From IMG/VR virus record IMGVR_UViG_3300020045_000678, positions 1 to 30,049 of that record: a stretch of DNA of 30,049 nt; one strand, 5' to 3'. The notes under the pieces are model-generated. The model was not told the DNA's origin. It was given only the letters and a program-made list of their open reading frames with translations, and did not search any database. A program made the position numbers and the translations under genes. Origin of the DNA: a virus (lineage: Duplodnaviria > Caudoviricetes). Below, in pieces: positions 1 through 29,884 of the stretch (positions are counted from its first letter, which is position 1; the number at the start of each line of letters is the position of its first letter).

Positions 1-4
1 TAAG

Positions 5-69
5 TGATCCACAGGGCAAGAACCATGCCAACACATAGTTATACACAAACCATACACAGATTATCCACA
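5..69 (+). promoter_or_regulatory. Cluster of DnaA-box-like 9-mers
   Basis: TTATCCACA 61-69 (perfect) and TTATACACA 39-47 (fits TTATNCACA); degenerate TGATCCACA 5-13 and CCATACACA 50-58. The boxes at 39/50/61 are 11 bp apart. Confidence 0.65.
16..30 (-). promoter_or_regulatory. Sigma54 (-24/-12)-like motif
   Basis: Reverse complement reads TGGCATGGTTCTTGC, i.e. GG-N10-GC, matching TGGCAC-N5-TTGC with one mismatch. Confidence 0.45.
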
Positions 70-259
70 ATAGGGGTAATGCTAACGGATCAACTATCTA
101 TTATAATGGCTTTAAGGTGTGTTAACGTGCGTAATAGGGGCATGTGTGTGTATTTATATTGGCGGTATTCATAGGTGTATCCTACCACATTTAAAACGTG
201 TTTTTCACTATTCAATTTCCCCATAATAAAATATATTTTAAATATTGAGTAGAAATGTG

Positions 260-288
260 TTGACTTTTGTCTAAAAATATGGTATAAT
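260..288 (+). promoter_or_regulatory. Sigma70-type promoter for the packaging/structural operon
   Basis: TTGACT(260-265)-17 bp-TATAAT(283-288), with extended -10 TG. Confidence 0.8.
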
Positions 289-315
289 ATTATTATATTA
301 AGTAGTTAATTAATA

Positions 316-502
316 GTGTTTCTGCTGAAACGGAAACACATGAAAAGAAACCTACCCAAAAGGTTTCTTTTATAAAATGGAAAGCTCTCCAAAAGCTTTC
401 CATTTATTATATAAATGTTCAAGAAGTGTTTTAGGCACTTCTTTCACTATGAACGCTCTGTAGAGACGGAGCGTTAATTAAATTGTCGGAACTTGTAGTT
501 CC
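316..502 (+). other. Tandem hairpin array in the terS 5' leader (structured leader or ncRNA)
   Basis: Six consecutive stem-loops at 316-339, 343-371, 375-405, 421-443, 452-475 and 488-502. G-U pairs form only on the + strand. Confidence 0.65.
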
Positions 503-534
503 TCCTTCTTTATTATAAAGGTAAAAGGTGTCTA

Positions 535-978
535 ATGGTTAAAGAACTTCCAGTGTCTAAACCCCCAAGGGGTGGTAAGAGAGTCGGTGCTGGCAGACCA
601 TCGCTGGTCAGAGAAAACAACGCTAGAGCAGCGGAGGGGCTACCACCAGTTAGATTCCCACCAAAGAAACCTAAAAGTAGGGCTGACCTACCAGTAGAAA
701 CAAAGCTACGCAGACAAGAGATTTTAGCTGAGATGTTGTCTATTCGTTCTGAACACATCGTTAAGAGAGTTTTAGATAAAGCTCTAGATGACAATGATAA
801 AGACCAAATGGAATGTATTAAGATTGTGATGGATAGGATTCTTCCTAAAGATTACATTGCTAAGAGTGGTGGACGTTCTGGAGCTATCCAAATTAACATC
901 AGTGGTATTGGTCAGATAGAAACAGCCATAGAGGAAATTGTCCCTGAACAAGACTATATTGAAGGGGAAATATCATAA
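535..978 (+). CDS. terS: Putative terminase small subunit
   Basis: Immediately upstream of terL; basic N-terminus with RGGKRVGAGRP, helical core, IQINISG C-terminal strand; AAGGTG RBS. Confidence 0.65.
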   Translation: MVKELPVSKPPRGGKRVGAGRPSLVRENNARAAEGLPPVRFPPKKPKSRADLPVETKLRRQEILAEMLSIRSEHIVKRVLDKALDDNDKDQMECIKIVMDRILPKDYIAKSGGRSGAIQINISGIGQIETAIEEIVPEQDYIEGEIS

Positions 979-2231
979 CCACACTTAACGTAAAGCTTCA
1001 TGCAAAACAGCTAGAAGTGTTTAATGACAAGGCTCGATTCAGAGTTGTTGCCGCAGGGAGGCGTTTTGGTAAATCTCGACTAGCCGCATGGGAACTTCTG
1101 ATACATGCTCTACAAAGTACAGATAAAGATGTTTTCTATGTAGCTCCAACCTATCAACAAGCTTCTGATATTATGTGGAGTATGTTAAAAGAATTGGGTC
1201 ATGAAGTTATTAAGATGGCTTATGAACAAACTAAAGTTCTTCTTCTAGTTAATGGTCGTAAGATATTCCTTAAAGGGGCAGATAGACCAGACACTCTACG
1301 GGGTGTTGGACTTGCTTTCTTAGTAATTGATGAATATGCCGATATTAAACCTATGGTGTGGGAGCAAATCCTTAGACCAGCTCTAGCAGACGTTCAAGGT
1401 GGAGCCATGTTTATTGGTACTCCTAAAGGACGTAATCACTTCTATGAGTTGTTTAAATATGCAGATACAGGGAAAGATGAAGAGTGGTCAACACACCACT
1501 TTACTTCTTATGATAATCCTCTTATCCCTAAAAAGGAAATTGAAGCCGCTCAAGTGTCTATGTCTAGTTTTGCTTTTAGACAAGAGTTTATGGCGTCTTT
1601 TGAAGCCGCATCTAGGGATGTGTTTAAACCTGAATGGATAGTCCACGATGATGAAGAGCCAGAAGACGGTAAATACTTTGTCGCAATTGACTTAGCTGGT
1701 TTCTTAGATGAAGATAAGCAGTCAGGGAATAAGAATAAAAAGCTAGATGATACAGCCATTGCTGTCGTCAAAGTAGGGGAATATGGTTGGTGGGTGGCGG
1801 AGATTCGCTCTGGTAGATGGGGTATTAAAGAGACAGCAGAAGAGATTATGGCTGTTGCTCTTAAGTATGAACCTACAGCTATAGCCATTGAGAAAGGTAG
1901 TTTAAAGAATGCCTGTCTCCCCTACATCAAAGACCTCATGCGTACACATAACAATTACTTTAGAATAGATGATGTTACTCATGGAAATCAAAAGAAAACT
2001 GATAGGATTGTATGGGCATTACAAGGTAGGTTTGAGCATGGTAAAATCTCTCTTAACTATGGAGATTGGAATAACAAGTTTGTTGACCAACTTACAAACT
2101 TTCCTAATAGTCAGATTCATGATGACTTGGTTGATGCTCTTGCTTATATTGACCAAATTCAAGTAGTAGAGTATTACCAAGATTACGAAGACGATGAGTA
2201 TGAAGTGCTAGACTCTATAAGTGGATATTAA
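975..2231 (+). CDS. terL: Terminase large subunit; probable start is ATA at 975 rather than GTG at 1017
   Basis: Walker A AGRRFGKS, Walker B LVIDE, GTPKG motif, RNase H-like IDLAG and HDDLVDALAY. The in-frame extension TTLNVKLHAKQLEVF contains the Q-motif and follows the SD AAGGGG. Confidence 0.95.
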   Translation: MTTLNVKLHAKQLEVFNDKARFRVVAAGRRFGKSRLAAWELLIHALQSTDKDVFYVAPTYQQASDIMWSMLKELGHEVIKMAYEQTKVLLLVNGRKIFLKGADRPDTLRGVGLAFLVIDEYADIKPMVWEQILRPALADVQGGAMFIGTPKGRNHFYELFKYADTGKDEEWSTHHFTSYDNPLIPKKEIEAAQVSMSSFAFRQEFMASFEAASRDVFKPEWIVHDDEEPEDGKYFVAIDLAGFLDEDKQSGNKNKKLDDTAIAVVKVGEYGWWVAEIRSGRWGIKETAEEIMAVALKYEPTAIAIEKGSLKNACLPYIKDLMRTHNNYFRIDDVTHGNQKKTDRIVWALQGRFEHGKISLNYGDWNNKFVDQLTNFPNSQIHDDLVDALAYIDQIQVVEYYQDYEDDEYEVLDSISGY

Positions 2232-24405: not shown

Positions 24406-24722
24406 TATAGATTTGGTCGTAATTCAAAATCACTCTGAGGGTAGAAAAACTCAAAGATTTTCTTCTCTTCTGGAATCTGAATTACAATGTGAACACGACC
24501 ATCTGATAAAAGCTCCCAACAACCCTCATAAGACTCACTTGTAGGGACGTTGATAGCAAAAGACTGGTAAAGGTCTAGTTTATTTGTGTTTGTAAACACT
24601 CGACAAGGTTTGTCTGTTAAAACTAGTTGTTGAGTTTCATTTTGTTGCCTATATCTTTCGATAGAGATAGCAGAATGAGATAATGTTGGTACTAATAACA
24701 TTAAAGCTAAAATAAATTTCAT
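24405..24722 (-). CDS. Secreted/periplasmic protein with signal peptide
   Basis: MKFILALMLLVPTLSHSA signal-like N-terminus; LVLTDKPC...EGCW. Confidence 0.65.
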   Translation of the reverse strand: MKFILALMLLVPTLSHSAISIERYRQQNETQQLVLTDKPCRVFTNTNKLDLYQSFAINVPTSESYEGCWELLSDGRVHIVIQIPEEKKIFEFFYPQSDFELRPNL

Positions 24723-24896
24723 TTAATTTTCCTTAAATTAGTGGTTCTTCGACTAGGAAACTCCCAATCCTACGACTTCCCCATTGCCGTTAATATACTA
24801 CAAGGTTGCGCTTGGACACACACGACAGCCTATCAGTTTAAGTGGTAGGAAAGTAGTGCTGCCTCATTAAGTATGTCTATAGGCGTGTAGTATGTA

Positions 24897-25352
24897 TTAA
24901 TCTGGCAAATCGTCTGGTTTTGTTGACTTACCTGAGTTCTCAAACACAAAATCGGTCAACTCATTAGCTAAATTTTTAACCTGTTCTTTATCTACAGTTT
25001 TTGCTCCAACTGTGAGGATAGAGACAGCGGCTGATAAGGAACTTTGGCGGACAATGAGGCGTTGGCGGATTGTGCGTTCATCCTTTCCCTCAAAATCTCG
25101 ACCTGCGTAACCAGCATTTGAACTTGCTGTTGAAGGCTTATTATTTGCTCCTGTAGGAAGACTAGGTTGTCCTTCTGACCAGCCTTTGATGATGGATTTA
25201 ACATCGTAAAAACCCCCTGCATTTTTCTCTTGTTCGAGTGTGAATTGTTCACCTGCAACTAAACCTTCTAGTTGTGCTTTAAGTGGAGCATTAAATCGTA
25301 AACCCTGAATTGGCTTTGCAATTGTACGAACATCACCACCATCAGATTTATA
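24897..25352 (-). pseudogene. N-terminally truncated SSB-like protein (151 codons, no upstream start)
   Basis: Open frame YKSDGGDVRT...EKNAGGFYDV...RQRLIVRQSSLSAAV...KPDDLPD*. An in-frame stop lies 3 codons upstream, inside the junction insert. SSB call is inferred from the acidic tail and position. Confidence 0.6.
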
Positions 25353-25488
25353 ACAGGTTATTTAAGAGGTTGTCAACAACTTTATTCCATACCGTCAACA
25401 GCATCCCACTGACCGTCCTCATAACCATCCATGTATCCTTTCTCACCACCTACCAAATAACCTAAACCAAATAATACTCCACCCACTA
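25349..25488 (-). repeat. Diverged inverted copy of 26249-26388 (small gene plus promoter)
   Basis: Manual alignment gives 10 substitutions and 1 indel over about 140 bp; flanked by TATAACA at 25349-25355 and 25491-25497. Confidence 0.9.
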
Positions 25489-25491
25489 AAT

Positions 25492-26094
25492 ATAACACTT
25501 GACATTCCTAAAGAACCATATAAATGGCTTAAATCTTATGGTATTACTGATGAAGAGATTGTAAATAACAATTTAATGTGGGGAAATGGAATGTTAATTT
25601 TCCCCTATTACGAAAGGGAGAATAATGAAATATCCAAACAGTCCAGCGGGGAATCTGTGTCAGTATTTGGAGACAAATCACCCAATGATAGTCTCCAATA
25701 TTGGCAAGGTAGGTATTTTCCTACACAAAGCCCTAAAGTTATTAATAGGGGTTTCCCTGATAAGTATGTTAACTTTCGCACTAACTTGCGTAATGATGGT
25801 AGTGGGGGGGATGGTCGCATTATTGTTGTGGAGGATTCTTTATCTGCTATAAAAGTAAACCGAGTGGAAAATAGCATGGAGTTACTAGGTAGTAACCTAT
25901 CAATGCACAAAGCTCTAAGGTTGTCAAGAGTTTTCTCTCACTTGACTTTATGGTTGGATAGTGATAAACTATTAACAGCAACTAAATTTGTAAACAAGTA
26001 TTCTAGTTTATTTGACAAGTGTGATTATATTTACACTGAGAAAGACCCAAAAGAATATTCAACAGAAGAAATAAGGAAAATATTAAATGAATAA
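25492..26094 (+). CDS. Toprim DNA primase, N-terminally truncated (no Zn-binding domain)
   Basis: Primase-like sequence runs upstream of the called ATG at 25576 (TLDIPKEPYKWLKSYGIT); LIFP, WQGR, IIVVEDSLSAIKV, LWLDSD, KDPK motifs. Confidence 0.75.
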   Translation: MTLDIPKEPYKWLKSYGITDEEIVNNNLMWGNGMLIFPYYERENNEISKQSSGESVSVFGDKSPNDSLQYWQGRYFPTQSPKVINRGFPDKYVNFRTNLRNDGSGGDGRIIVVEDSLSAIKVNRVENSMELLGSNLSMHKALRLSRVFSHLTLWLDSDKLLTATKFVNKYSSLFDKCDYIYTEKDPKEYSTEEIRKILNE

Positions 26095-26360: not shown

Positions 26361-26389
26361 TTGACAACATCTTAAAAACCTGTTATAAT
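26361..26389 (+). promoter_or_regulatory. Consensus sigma70 promoter for the helicase-polymerase operon
   Basis: TTGACA(26361-26366)-17-TATAAT(26384-26389), with extended TG. Confidence 0.85.
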
Positions 26390-26411
26390 TTATTATATAA
26401 TATATATTAAT

Positions 26412-26468
26412 TAAGACCTATATAGGTCTTATATTAAAACATAAAGTCTTTTAATAGACTTTATGTTT
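26412..26468. repeat. Palindrome pair in the helicase leader
   Basis: Perfect 20-bp palindrome TAAGACCTATATAGGTCTTA (26412-26431); 13-bp stem AAACATAAAGTCT/AGACTTTATGTTT (26437-26468). Confidence 0.8.
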
Positions 26469-26494
26469 ATTATAATTAATAGAAAGGACTTAAT

Positions 26495-27754: not shown

Positions 27755-27975
27755 AAGACCATGAAATAAGAGAATTAGTGTCTGAGCTAACCCAAGTTGC
27801 TAAGGATTACGCACTAACACAACAACTTAGGAGTAGAATTGGTGAGGTTGTTATTAAGCACGTTAAAAAAGCAACGCCTACAACTTCTACTTGGGACAAA
27901 TATGAAAACGTAGATAGGCAGGGAGGTAGCTTTAGTCAGTCTGAAATGGATGCCTATAATGCTAATAATTACTAA
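27751..27975 (+). CDS. Hypothetical protein
   Basis: 74 aa; coupled to both neighbours; GGAG RBS; DRQGGSF motif. Confidence 0.6.
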   Translation: MKDHEIRELVSELTQVAKDYALTQQLRSRIGEVVIKHVKKATPTTSTWDKYENVDRQGGSFSQSEMDAYNANNY

Positions 27976-29162
27976 TGAAACTTGTCTTTGATATAGAAGC
28001 TACGGGTGCTCAACGCAATCATGCACACCCCTATGATATGCGTAATGTGGCGTGTAACATAGGGATTAAGAATATAACCACAGGAGAGACTAAGATATGG
28101 AAAATTCAATATGATGAAAACCCTTATGGAGAAGCTCTTAGAGAAATACAAGAGTGGGTGTCCAATAGCACACTTCTCATTGGCTTTAACGCTAAGTATG
28201 ATTTGCATTGGTTTAGTCGCTACAATATTGTGGTTTCTAATTCATGTAGGGTATTTGATTGTCAACTGGCTTACTATATTATAACTAACCAGCAACATCG
28301 TTATCCCTCTTTAGACGGGGTTGCCTACCATTATGGCTTACCTCAGAAGTTAGACGTAGTTAAAACTGAATATTGGGATAAGGGGCTAGATACAAATGAC
28401 GTTCCTTATGAAATCCTATCAGAGTACTTAGAGCAGGATTTAAACGTCACACACAGCGTTTACAATGCCATAGAAGTGGATTTATCTACCTCTAGCTATG
28501 AAATGAATCAGCTTATTAAGATGTCTAATATGGATTTAGTTGTACTACAAGACATTGAGAGAAACGGTTTGTTGGTAAATGTTGAGAAGTCTAAACAGAA
28601 AGCTCTGGAGATTAATGAGGAACTTAGTAACATTGACGAGTATTTACGTCAACTGGCTGGTGTGGATTGGTTTAATCCTAATAGTGGAGATATGCTTTCT
28701 GCTTTTCTTTATGGTGGTGACATTCTACGTGATGGAAAAGAGGATTATATATTCACTTATAAATCTGGACGAACAGCTACAAAACAACGCTCTGTTAAAA
28801 TACCACATCATTTTGTCGGGATGTTTAAACCATTGGAAAAAACTGAGTTGGCAAAAGATGGATTTTGGGCAACAAACGAACCAACGCTAACCACTCTATT
28901 AGAGAAAGCCAAAGGTGAATATGCCTATGTGTTAGAAACTATCCTACACAGGGCAAAACTAGAGAAACGTAGAGGGACATATTATGAAGGGTATTTAAAG
29001 CGTATGGTTGAAATGGGTTGGGATGATAATATAGTACATACGTCGTATAACCAATGCGTCGCAACCACAGGTAGGCTCTCCAGTACAAAACCCAATGTTC
29101 AGAATTTAGAGAAACAGGTAGGTGAAATCATTGTTAGCAGATTTAAAAGGAGAATAACATGA
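27975..29162 (+). CDS. polA: Family A DNA polymerase, N-terminal part (3'-5' exonuclease plus thumb)
   Basis: ExoI FDIE, ExoII FNAKYD, ExoIII YLEQD; TTGRLSSTKPNVQN. Confidence 0.9.
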   Translation: MKLVFDIEATGAQRNHAHPYDMRNVACNIGIKNITTGETKIWKIQYDENPYGEALREIQEWVSNSTLLIGFNAKYDLHWFSRYNIVVSNSCRVFDCQLAYYIITNQQHRYPSLDGVAYHYGLPQKLDVVKTEYWDKGLDTNDVPYEILSEYLEQDLNVTHSVYNAIEVDLSTSSYEMNQLIKMSNMDLVVLQDIERNGLLVNVEKSKQKALEINEELSNIDEYLRQLAGVDWFNPNSGDMLSAFLYGGDILRDGKEDYIFTYKSGRTATKQRSVKIPHHFVGMFKPLEKTELAKDGFWATNEPTLTTLLEKAKGEYAYVLETILHRAKLEKRRGTYYEGYLKRMVEMGWDDNIVHTSYNQCVATTGRLSSTKPNVQNLEKQVGEIIVSRFKRRIT

Positions 29163-29884
29163 TTTGTAACTTAGATGCGGCTCAGTTGGAATGGCGTGTA
29201 GTAGCCCATAACTCTGGTGACAAGGTGGCAATACAAGAGATTTTAGATGGAGCTGATTTCCACTCGGATAATCAAGCCAAATTTAAACTCCCCTCTAGGT
29301 TAATTGCTAAAGTGTTCTTATTTAGAGCTATTTTTAAAGGGAGTGCCTATGCCTACTCAGTCGATAATGACTTTAAGCATCTTGGTGGGCAGAAGTTCTG
29401 GCAAAACATCATTGATAGGTTCTATGATAAATACTCTGGGATATACCAATACCACGCGTCTCTTATCCGAGAGGCTACAACCACAGGGCAAGTAGTTAGT
29501 AACTCTGGACGTATCTATCGTTTCGAGCCTAAGATGAAACGTGGGTTGCTAACCTATCCAGAGAATGACATTGTGAATTTTCCAGTACAAGGATTTTCAG
29601 CAGATTTGATGTCTTTGGCTAGGATTAGTGCTTGGAATAAACTGAAACCTGAGAGAGAATCAGGGAAAGTGCTCTTTGTAAACACTGTGCATGACAGCTT
29701 AAAGCTGGATATGAATTTAAACATTAAAGAAGCTATGGAGGTAGGATATAAAGTACGTGAGAGTTTTCGTGATATTCCTAGGAACTATAAAAAGATTTAT
29801 GGTAAAGACCTTTTAGTTCCTATGGATGCAGATTTTAAAGTTGGGATTAATGATTTGTGGTTGCATAAAATAGATTTAGGATAA
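29159..29884 (+). CDS. polA: Family A DNA polymerase, C-terminal catalytic part
   Basis: Motif A DAAQLEWR, motif B RLIAKVFLF, NFPVQG, motif C TVHDSL; own AGGAG RBS. Confidence 0.9.
   Translation: MICNLDAAQLEWRVVAHNSGDKVAIQEILDGADFHSDNQAKFKLPSRLIAKVFLFRAIFKGSAYAYSVDNDFKHLGGQKFWQNIIDRFYDKYSGIYQYHASLIREATTTGQVVSNSGRIYRFEPKMKRGLLTYPENDIVNFPVQGFSADLMSLARISAWNKLKPERESGKVLFVNTVHDSLKLDMNLNIKEAMEVGYKVRESFRDIPRNYKKIYGKDLLVPMDADFKVGINDLWLHKIDLG

Follow-up and report, generated by a model that had tools for sequence, protein, structure and literature searches.

A lineage-specific array of six predicted hairpins ahead of the packaging genes of an uncultured phage

The leader of the lambda pR' promoter contains 6S RNA and the terminator tR', which is read through with Q. 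In T4, the late genes e and soc have ribosome-binding sites masked by hairpins, and sponge RNAs of the CsrB/RsmZ type carry several GGA motifs in hairpin loops. In the accessible text of PMC9378689, the putRNA of HK022 is described as a pair of bulged stems that abut, with a triplex and, at the junction, a G that is critical, and FinP is described in that of PMC9977716 as a cis-antisense RNA to a ribosome-binding site. The accessible part of Fremin et al. (2023; PMC10690425) reports 14 candidate structured RNAs (csRNAs) upstream of a putative large terminase, and that of PMC3997798 cites work on 5' stem-loop stabilisers.

The DNA analysed here (the window) is a whole virus record of 30,049 nt, without a terminal repeat, in which six hairpins (H1 to H6) tile the gap between a strong promoter and a gene in the position of the small terminase (terS). 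As with lambda pR', a non-coding leader of ~200 nt lies between a strong promoter and late genes, but no terminator-grade hairpin is present here. With HK022 putL and putR the locus shares stem-loops that immediately follow a promoter for the host polymerase where a long phage operon begins, although here these are six plain predicted stems, unbulged, 3 nt apart and not conserved in the family. The likeness to the csRNAs of Fremin et al. is that of a non-coding structured element heading the packaging operon of an uncultured phage, but the csRNAs were found, according to the accessible part of that study, by covariation across genomes, whereas the array was without homologue in IMG/VR searches. 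Four short motifs of the array were absent from the three of six supplementary files of that study that were searched, a set that does not include the alignment files. No publication on the leader element was found in a search carried out mostly outside subscription journals.

A resemblance of the H2 and H3 loops to those of ColE1 RNA I/II was considered and set aside. When Rfam 15 was searched, the window gave no match at the gathering threshold, and positions 1–1000 gave 13 sub-threshold matches, the best with 32.8 bits where 67 were needed; the ColE1 RNA I/II family was absent from these 13. The expectation that the RNA was uncatalogued was thus borne out at threshold. Below it, H2 and H3 align to the two stem-loops of FinP (RF00107), with C-rich loops and a short spacer, at 30.8 bits (E 8e-4 in 1 kb) compared to a threshold of 45 bits. 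In contrast to FinP, the hairpins here belong to the sense strand, and no convincing promoter was detected for an antisense RNA: the perfect −10 hexamers of the − strand at 517 and 411 have −35 matches of at most 3/6, and the promoter scan reported none.

Anatomy and folding of the leader

The promoter (260..288, + strand) is of the sigma-70 type, with 11/12 consensus positions, a 17-nt spacer and an extended −10 TG, and would be expected to start transcription near 295. Downstream of it on the same strand, a first copy of TTAATTAA (306..313) is located 17 nt past the −10 hexamer. It is followed by H1 (316..339; 9 bp with one U.G and a 6-nt loop), H2 (343..371; a perfect 11-bp stem with loop ACCCAAA, an A-tract 5' and a U-tract 3', of sub-terminator score), H3 (375..405; a perfect 12-bp stem with loop CTCCAAA), H4 (421..443; eight Watson–Crick pairs and up to two U.G), H5 (452..475; 10 bp with one U.G), the second copy of TTAATTAA (474..481) and H6 (488..502; 6 bp, then a pyrimidine run). 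All six stems of the sequence-only reading were found in the promoter–terS gap with the sizes given there, as were the related 7-nt loops of H2 and H3 and both copies of TTAATTAA. This motif occurs four times in the contig against ~2.5 expected, so its count alone is not unusual. Possible leader peptide frames of 28 and 20 aa on the + strand and of 11 aa at 340–375 were discarded, having neither a regulatory codon run nor a linked alternative fold.

H2 and H3 repeat with a 33-nt period and have 11/14 arm-plus-loop positions in common (p ~0.002 after 15 comparisons), so that H3 is likely a tandem duplicate of H2. The differences between their stems are double-sided in three cases and breaking in none, a two-sequence count that was reached by 62/500 shuffles. 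H1 and H5 have an apical motif with the same U.G, but their likeness was not significant (p ~0.05 before correction). An alignment of five hairpins (H2, H3 and look-alikes) was rejected, as it was out of register and its pair count was uninformative.

As + strand RNA, the leader folded with a z of −6.31, with 0/200 shuffles as good, and among 150 segments of 200 nt taken from the contig, 201–400 folded best, followed by the leader of the strong promoter ahead of the helicase. The stem cores of H1–H6 had pair probabilities >0.9 and persisted in every prefix folded, and the folding check thus confirmed the six stems. The strand is another matter. The + strand is indeed preferred by the U.G pairs of H1, H4 and H5, which had been read as a sign of selection at the RNA level. 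For H2 and H3, in contrast, it is the − strand that gives the slightly lower energy (−11.0 vs. −10.6 kcal/mol for H2 and −15.6 vs. −13.8 for H3). Moreover, H2, H3 and H6 are perfect palindromes and the whole − strand folds nearly as well (z −5.79), so that the evidence for the strand is weak. No antisense target of at least 12 nt was found for the leader elsewhere in the contig. The two copies of TTAATTAA are predicted to pair, closing H1–H5 into one domain with a probability of ~0.8 for transcript ends at 490–505, which falls to ~0.5 with the end at 535 and to 0.04 with the end at 560; therefore, the closed domain depends on the model.

As single-stranded DNA, the leader reached a z of −8.13, which would fit a DNA-level or R-loop element, in which the DNA is opened by transcription across the array and its AT-rich spacers, so that replication can be primed or the terminal repeat duplicated in packaging. 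The same layout is repeated at a second promoter (26361..26478, + strand, 12/12) before the helicase, with TTAATTAA 17 nt past the −10 and two near-perfect hairpins, one of them H3-like (weak model match, E 0.18). This reading is also helped by DnaA-box-like 9-mers upstream here and in 15/58 relatives, by AT-only tracts in 34/58 and, as a lead only, by the resemblance of the N-terminus of the terS-like protein to an AT-hook. We consider it improbable all the same: neither the position nor the sequence of the array is kept in the relatives, TTAATTAA is found at that distance in 0/65 of them, and the half-site spacers vary between 10 and 12 nt, a poor fit to a rigid operator. The conserved landmark is instead a G-tract, which in 56/58 relatives precedes the promoter by 89 to ~900 nt, and it is this tract rather than the array that we infer to mark the packaging region. 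Since the array is located downstream of the promoter and is absent from terminase-sharing relatives, the earlier proposal of a packaging-site structure is weak.

Two further observations concern the helicase promoter: ATC 26495, preceded by a purine tract, may be the start of the helicase frame, and in L234 the same place has converging promoters around an AT-only tract.

The array immediately follows a host-type promoter and opens a long operon, a position that also suggested a put-like cis antiterminator, or a terminator or attenuator array, that would delay the late genes. In keeping with it, the operon has a strong internal terminator after the capsid gene (+12.5), no further 11/12 promoter lies between 6,522 and 26,361, and H2 is framed by an A-tract and a U-tract. 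However, when intrinsic terminators were scored, the leader hairpins reached −22 to −49 compared to +12 to +25 for the clear terminators of the contig, which are located after the capsid gene and between the converging arms. By this score none of the leader hairpins was an intrinsic terminator on either strand, whereas a simple terminator scan flagged H6 on the + strand and H2 on the − strand. With neither a terminator-grade hairpin nor a fold competing with H1–H6, an attenuator is unlikely, and the late-gene switch of the sequence-only reading was not supported. As Rfam gave no match either, and as unbulged stems 3 nt apart differ from the two adjacent bulged stems and triplex of putRNA (accessible text of PMC9378689), we give this whole class of explanation very little weight.

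The last part of the leader is a weak anti-SD/SD element, CC...GG (504..528, + strand), over the purine tracts 517–521 and 523–528. The anti-SD-like CCTCCTT at 501–507 is present as had been noticed, but its expected pairing with the tract before terS is weak and limited to 504–506, which pair with 526–528 at ~0.7; 501–502 are held by H6. The element was the only part of the leader common to the window and its relatives: a CC...GG element over the ribosome-binding site was detected in 21/48 leaders (window included), compared to a mean of 0.52 and a maximum of 3 in shuffled sequences, with stems of 3–5 bp only. It is similar to the masking described for T4 e and soc in that a small stem lies over the SD of a late gene. 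Here, in contrast, the masking half is within the transcript of the same promoter, so that it would produce a constant damping of translation without discriminating early from late transcripts.

The phage contig and its distant relatives

PHROG scans (14 proteins) revealed a large terminase, portal, scaffold, capsid and tail proteins, ribonucleotide reductase, primase, helicase and a split DNA polymerase. No close cultured phage was found, the capsid matches being at most 35% identical. The 147-aa ORF that follows the leader (535..978, + strand) is called terS by position only, as it lies before terL; its N-terminal segment is Gly/Arg-rich. It belongs to no PHROG or Pfam family, had 0 matches among 50,697 phage records, and its structure model (pLDDT 60, low confidence) matched uncharacterised phage proteins only; AT_hook was found on 15% of the members of its look-alike cluster. 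The large terminase (975..2231, + strand) has its probable start at ATA 975, overlapping the terS stop, and in relatives the terL start at the same place is ATG, GTG, TTG or ATA (the latter in L091 and L195).

Elsewhere in the window, the DNA polymerase (27975–29884) is split into two adjacent frames of 395 and 241 aa, each matching polymerase families, and 24722–25576, between the two replication arms, is a stretch of ~850 nt without an ATG-started frame of at least 90 aa. At the left end, contigs of the wastewater runs X2, X3 and X5, from two studies, join position 1 to position 164 on opposite strands, so that the first ~150 nt of the window (1–163) look inverted with respect to those strains; this could be either an assembly artefact of the contig end or a real inversion. 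If inverted, the DnaA-box-like 9-mer at 61 would face the same way as in most relatives.

In 28/58 relatives a pqqA gene was detected by pattern upstream of the same promoter (including L026:1037–1114 and L037:1067–1138), and it was confirmed with Pfam in the two tested, while none was found in the window. The accessible part of a Lake Baikal study (10.1101/2020.04.02.019802) describes pqqA in phages assigned to Methylophilaceae. Because of both observations, a methylotroph host is a reasonable inference for the phage family.

The search for relatives of the terS-like gene yielded 65 proteins, and a profile search located 219 loci, the window among them. The closest TerS relatives were P0002 and P0066, both at 81%, and P0003 at 73%. 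The representative set contains 65 relatives after dereplication, with an 11/12 promoter and at least 200 nt of upstream DNA; their start codons are predicted, a few being hand-corrected. In most relatives, the 800 nt before the terS-like gene contained a promoter of at least 11/12. Leaders were of 65 nt or less in 39/65 and the mRNA was apparently leaderless in 6/65, the family thus expressing this gene without the array. An ATG six bases past the −10 of the terS promoter, for an apparently leaderless mRNA, was seen in L042, L014, L160, L035, L173 and L157.

The array was not found in the 65 representatives, and no leader homologue was detected by BLAST in 218 related loci or by a one-sequence covariance model in 99 loci (best E 0.022) and 5 near-complete records. 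IMG/VR pattern scans gave one match for the H2/H3 core and four for the H1 core, all of them in coding frames without the array. BLAST of positions 1–1000 vs. GenBank phages revealed the promoter only, and that of the leader vs. plasmids short pieces only (best E 4e-4 over 45 nt). Two distant loci were matched in the genome collection. Loci collected through TerL (L002–L009) were not informative, as these phages have another upstream layout.

Under a strict rule, the window contains five hairpins in 246 nt, compared to three in the 3,630 nt of the ORF-free leaders of 54 relatives, with a maximum of one each; this count leaves out 11 relatives with a reading frame in the leader, among which L207 and L217 have structured AT-rich leaders. 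The array was denser and richer in G+C than the leader of any relative. As for what takes its place, the same slot contains genes for tRNA-Met (L028 and L071), HSP20, endonuclease VII and DUF6321, and Rfam at the gathering score detected one tRNA and nothing else in 20 relatives. A single 5' hairpin right past the start site, in which the stem sequence varies and the pairing is kept, was seen in L079, L087, L084, L188, L090, L195 and L184, and is missing in sister sequences; L114, L143 and L144, of one distant clade, have in common a long hairpin with a variable apex in the terS leader. The array is a lineage-specific elaboration of a slot that is empty in some relatives and in others holds a lone hairpin, a tRNA, small genes or AT-rich tracts.

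When such AT-rich tracts were sought in 64 relatives, they were located at a divergent strong promoter in 22, in the leader in 7 and at a tandem promoter in 5, and none was found in 30; the window falls just below the criterion. Among 18 divergent loci viewed, most ran into a terminator-like hairpin without a reading frame. The divergent − strand promoter lies just upstream of the terS promoter in L171:1200–1288, L088, L075, L079, L194, L197, L188, L157, L040 and others, and is followed by ~90–150 nt of almost pure A/U that run into the terminator-like hairpin ending the pqqA gene. The divergent tract is a candidate for a family-wide AU-rich small RNA or for a promoter-coupled unwinding element. 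That of L026 contains an H3-like hairpin (weak match, E 0.094).

These tracts bear on an alternative in which the array is cargo, a self-contained RNA of ~180–200 nt formed by H1–H5 and closed by the pairing of TTAATTAA, made from the strongest promoter, freed by processing or pausing and, as a trans-acting decoy, titrating a host RNA-binding protein. Its closing helix is well predicted (~0.8) for transcript ends at 490–505, the repeated loops would suit a sponge, and the slot holds a tRNA-Met and the HSP20, endonuclease VII and DUF6321 genes in relatives, 22/64 of which drive an AT-rich tract from a divergent strong promoter. Yet the closing helix consists of A-U pairs alone and loses nearly all its probability (0.04) once the sequence extends to 560, no terminator closes the array, and the L026 match is weak. 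Furthermore, in contrast to sponges of CsrA such as CsrB/RsmZ, all four GGA triplets (332, 379, 468 and 488) are in stems. We therefore regard such a cargo RNA as rather unlikely. The array may still have a protein-binding or sponge role. The wider proposal, that the five-arm RNA closed by TTAATTAA is the structured counterpart of family-wide, promoter-driven AU-rich non-coding RNAs, transcribed next to the terminase genes of methylotroph-infecting phages and soaking up a host RNA-binding protein in the course of infection, is to our judgement slightly less probable still.

Close strains and probable selection on the array

Close strains were represented by five wastewater runs (X1–X5) of two studies, all of them assembled contigs and none recorded as RNA. 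Among the matches listed, pieces of X4, X1 and X3 cover 294–495 (202 nt) with 0 differences. The baseline was taken from terL and the portal in ten pieces picked among the matches listed for X1–X3, from which more diverged pieces were left out; it amounted to 81 differences in 2,734 nt (~3%), so that ~6 would be expected over 202 nt (Poisson P 0.003, among the matches listed). On both sides of the leader, the X3 pieces showed 19 differences at 1–133 and 26 at 528–761. The three identical pieces come from one study and are mutually unlinked. Other pieces were less uniform: those of X2 and X4 over 437/467–578 have three unplaced differences each, and a depth-2 contig of X5 lacks one base at 476, within the second TTAATTAA. 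A more distant X5 contig aligns over 164–377, with 31 substitutions and 18 gap letters (counts only), and rejoins at 535, so that H1–H2 are recognisable in it and H3–H6 are not. Hairpin conservation, to which the sequence-only reading had pointed as the check on its proposal, was therefore full in the very close strains but nil at 45–65% TerS identity.

The identity of the leader could have another origin. Divergence along the window is patchy, with an abrupt onset near 578, so recent recombination could also yield it. This is how strain identity is accounted for if the array is a near-neutral build-up of palindromes, in which inverted repeats of a non-coding, AT-rich zone by the genome end become perfect through template switching as the DNA is replicated. 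Template switching yields double-sided changes without selection. Also, both strands fold symmetrically, and in the relatives strict hairpins number 1.6/kb in the non-coding DNA that precedes the promoter vs. 0.3/kb in coding DNA, with G.T not in excess over A.C mismatches (2 vs. 3). On the other hand, no leader among the relatives comes near the array in hairpin density or in G+C content, H2 and H3 have kept their loops, and U.G pairs, of the kind that template switching tends to remove, are still present. Taken with the 0 differences over 202 nt in close strains, these data make a neutral origin distinctly doubtful in our opinion. The array is real, uncatalogued and lineage-specific, and it is probably under selection as RNA.

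A proposed fixed leader of the packaging-gene mRNA

The explanation that we put first, tentatively and with somewhat less than even confidence, is that the array is a lineage-specific structured 5' leader of the late mRNA of the packaging genes and serves as a fixed scaffold rather than a switch. The host RNA polymerase would start near 295 and the hairpins would fold one by one as they are transcribed. The repeated apical loops of H2 and H3, and perhaps those of H1 and H5, could then be docking sites for a putative RNA-binding protein of the host or the phage, and the bound protein would shield the long late mRNA from the 5'-end scanning of RNase E. In addition, the CC...GG element would partly mask the ribosome-binding site, so that little small terminase would be made even from so strong a promoter. 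Of the possibilities raised by the sequence-only reading, that of an undescribed RNA ahead of terS is the one upheld, in the form of an uncatalogued structured leader with a weak anti-SD element.

According to the accessible text of PMC9943677, RNase E bypasses plain stem-loops and is hindered by bound proteins. As it would pass plain stem-loops, and as H1 is preceded by ~20 weakly paired bases, hairpins alone would give little protection, and a bound protein would be needed to shield the mRNA. The same ~20 bases weaken the proposal of a 5'-terminal stabiliser alone, which was set aside.

If the array were instead a cargo RNA, it would mean that a large uncultured phage family uses its strongest promoters to make non-coding decoy RNAs, phage genes of a kind that annotation centred on proteins misses. 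If the reading as a fixed leader is true, the array would be another fast-evolving structured leader on a phage packaging operon, and its main use would lie in the relatives, in which the same promoter is followed by a natural gradation of leaders, from none at all to 600 nt.
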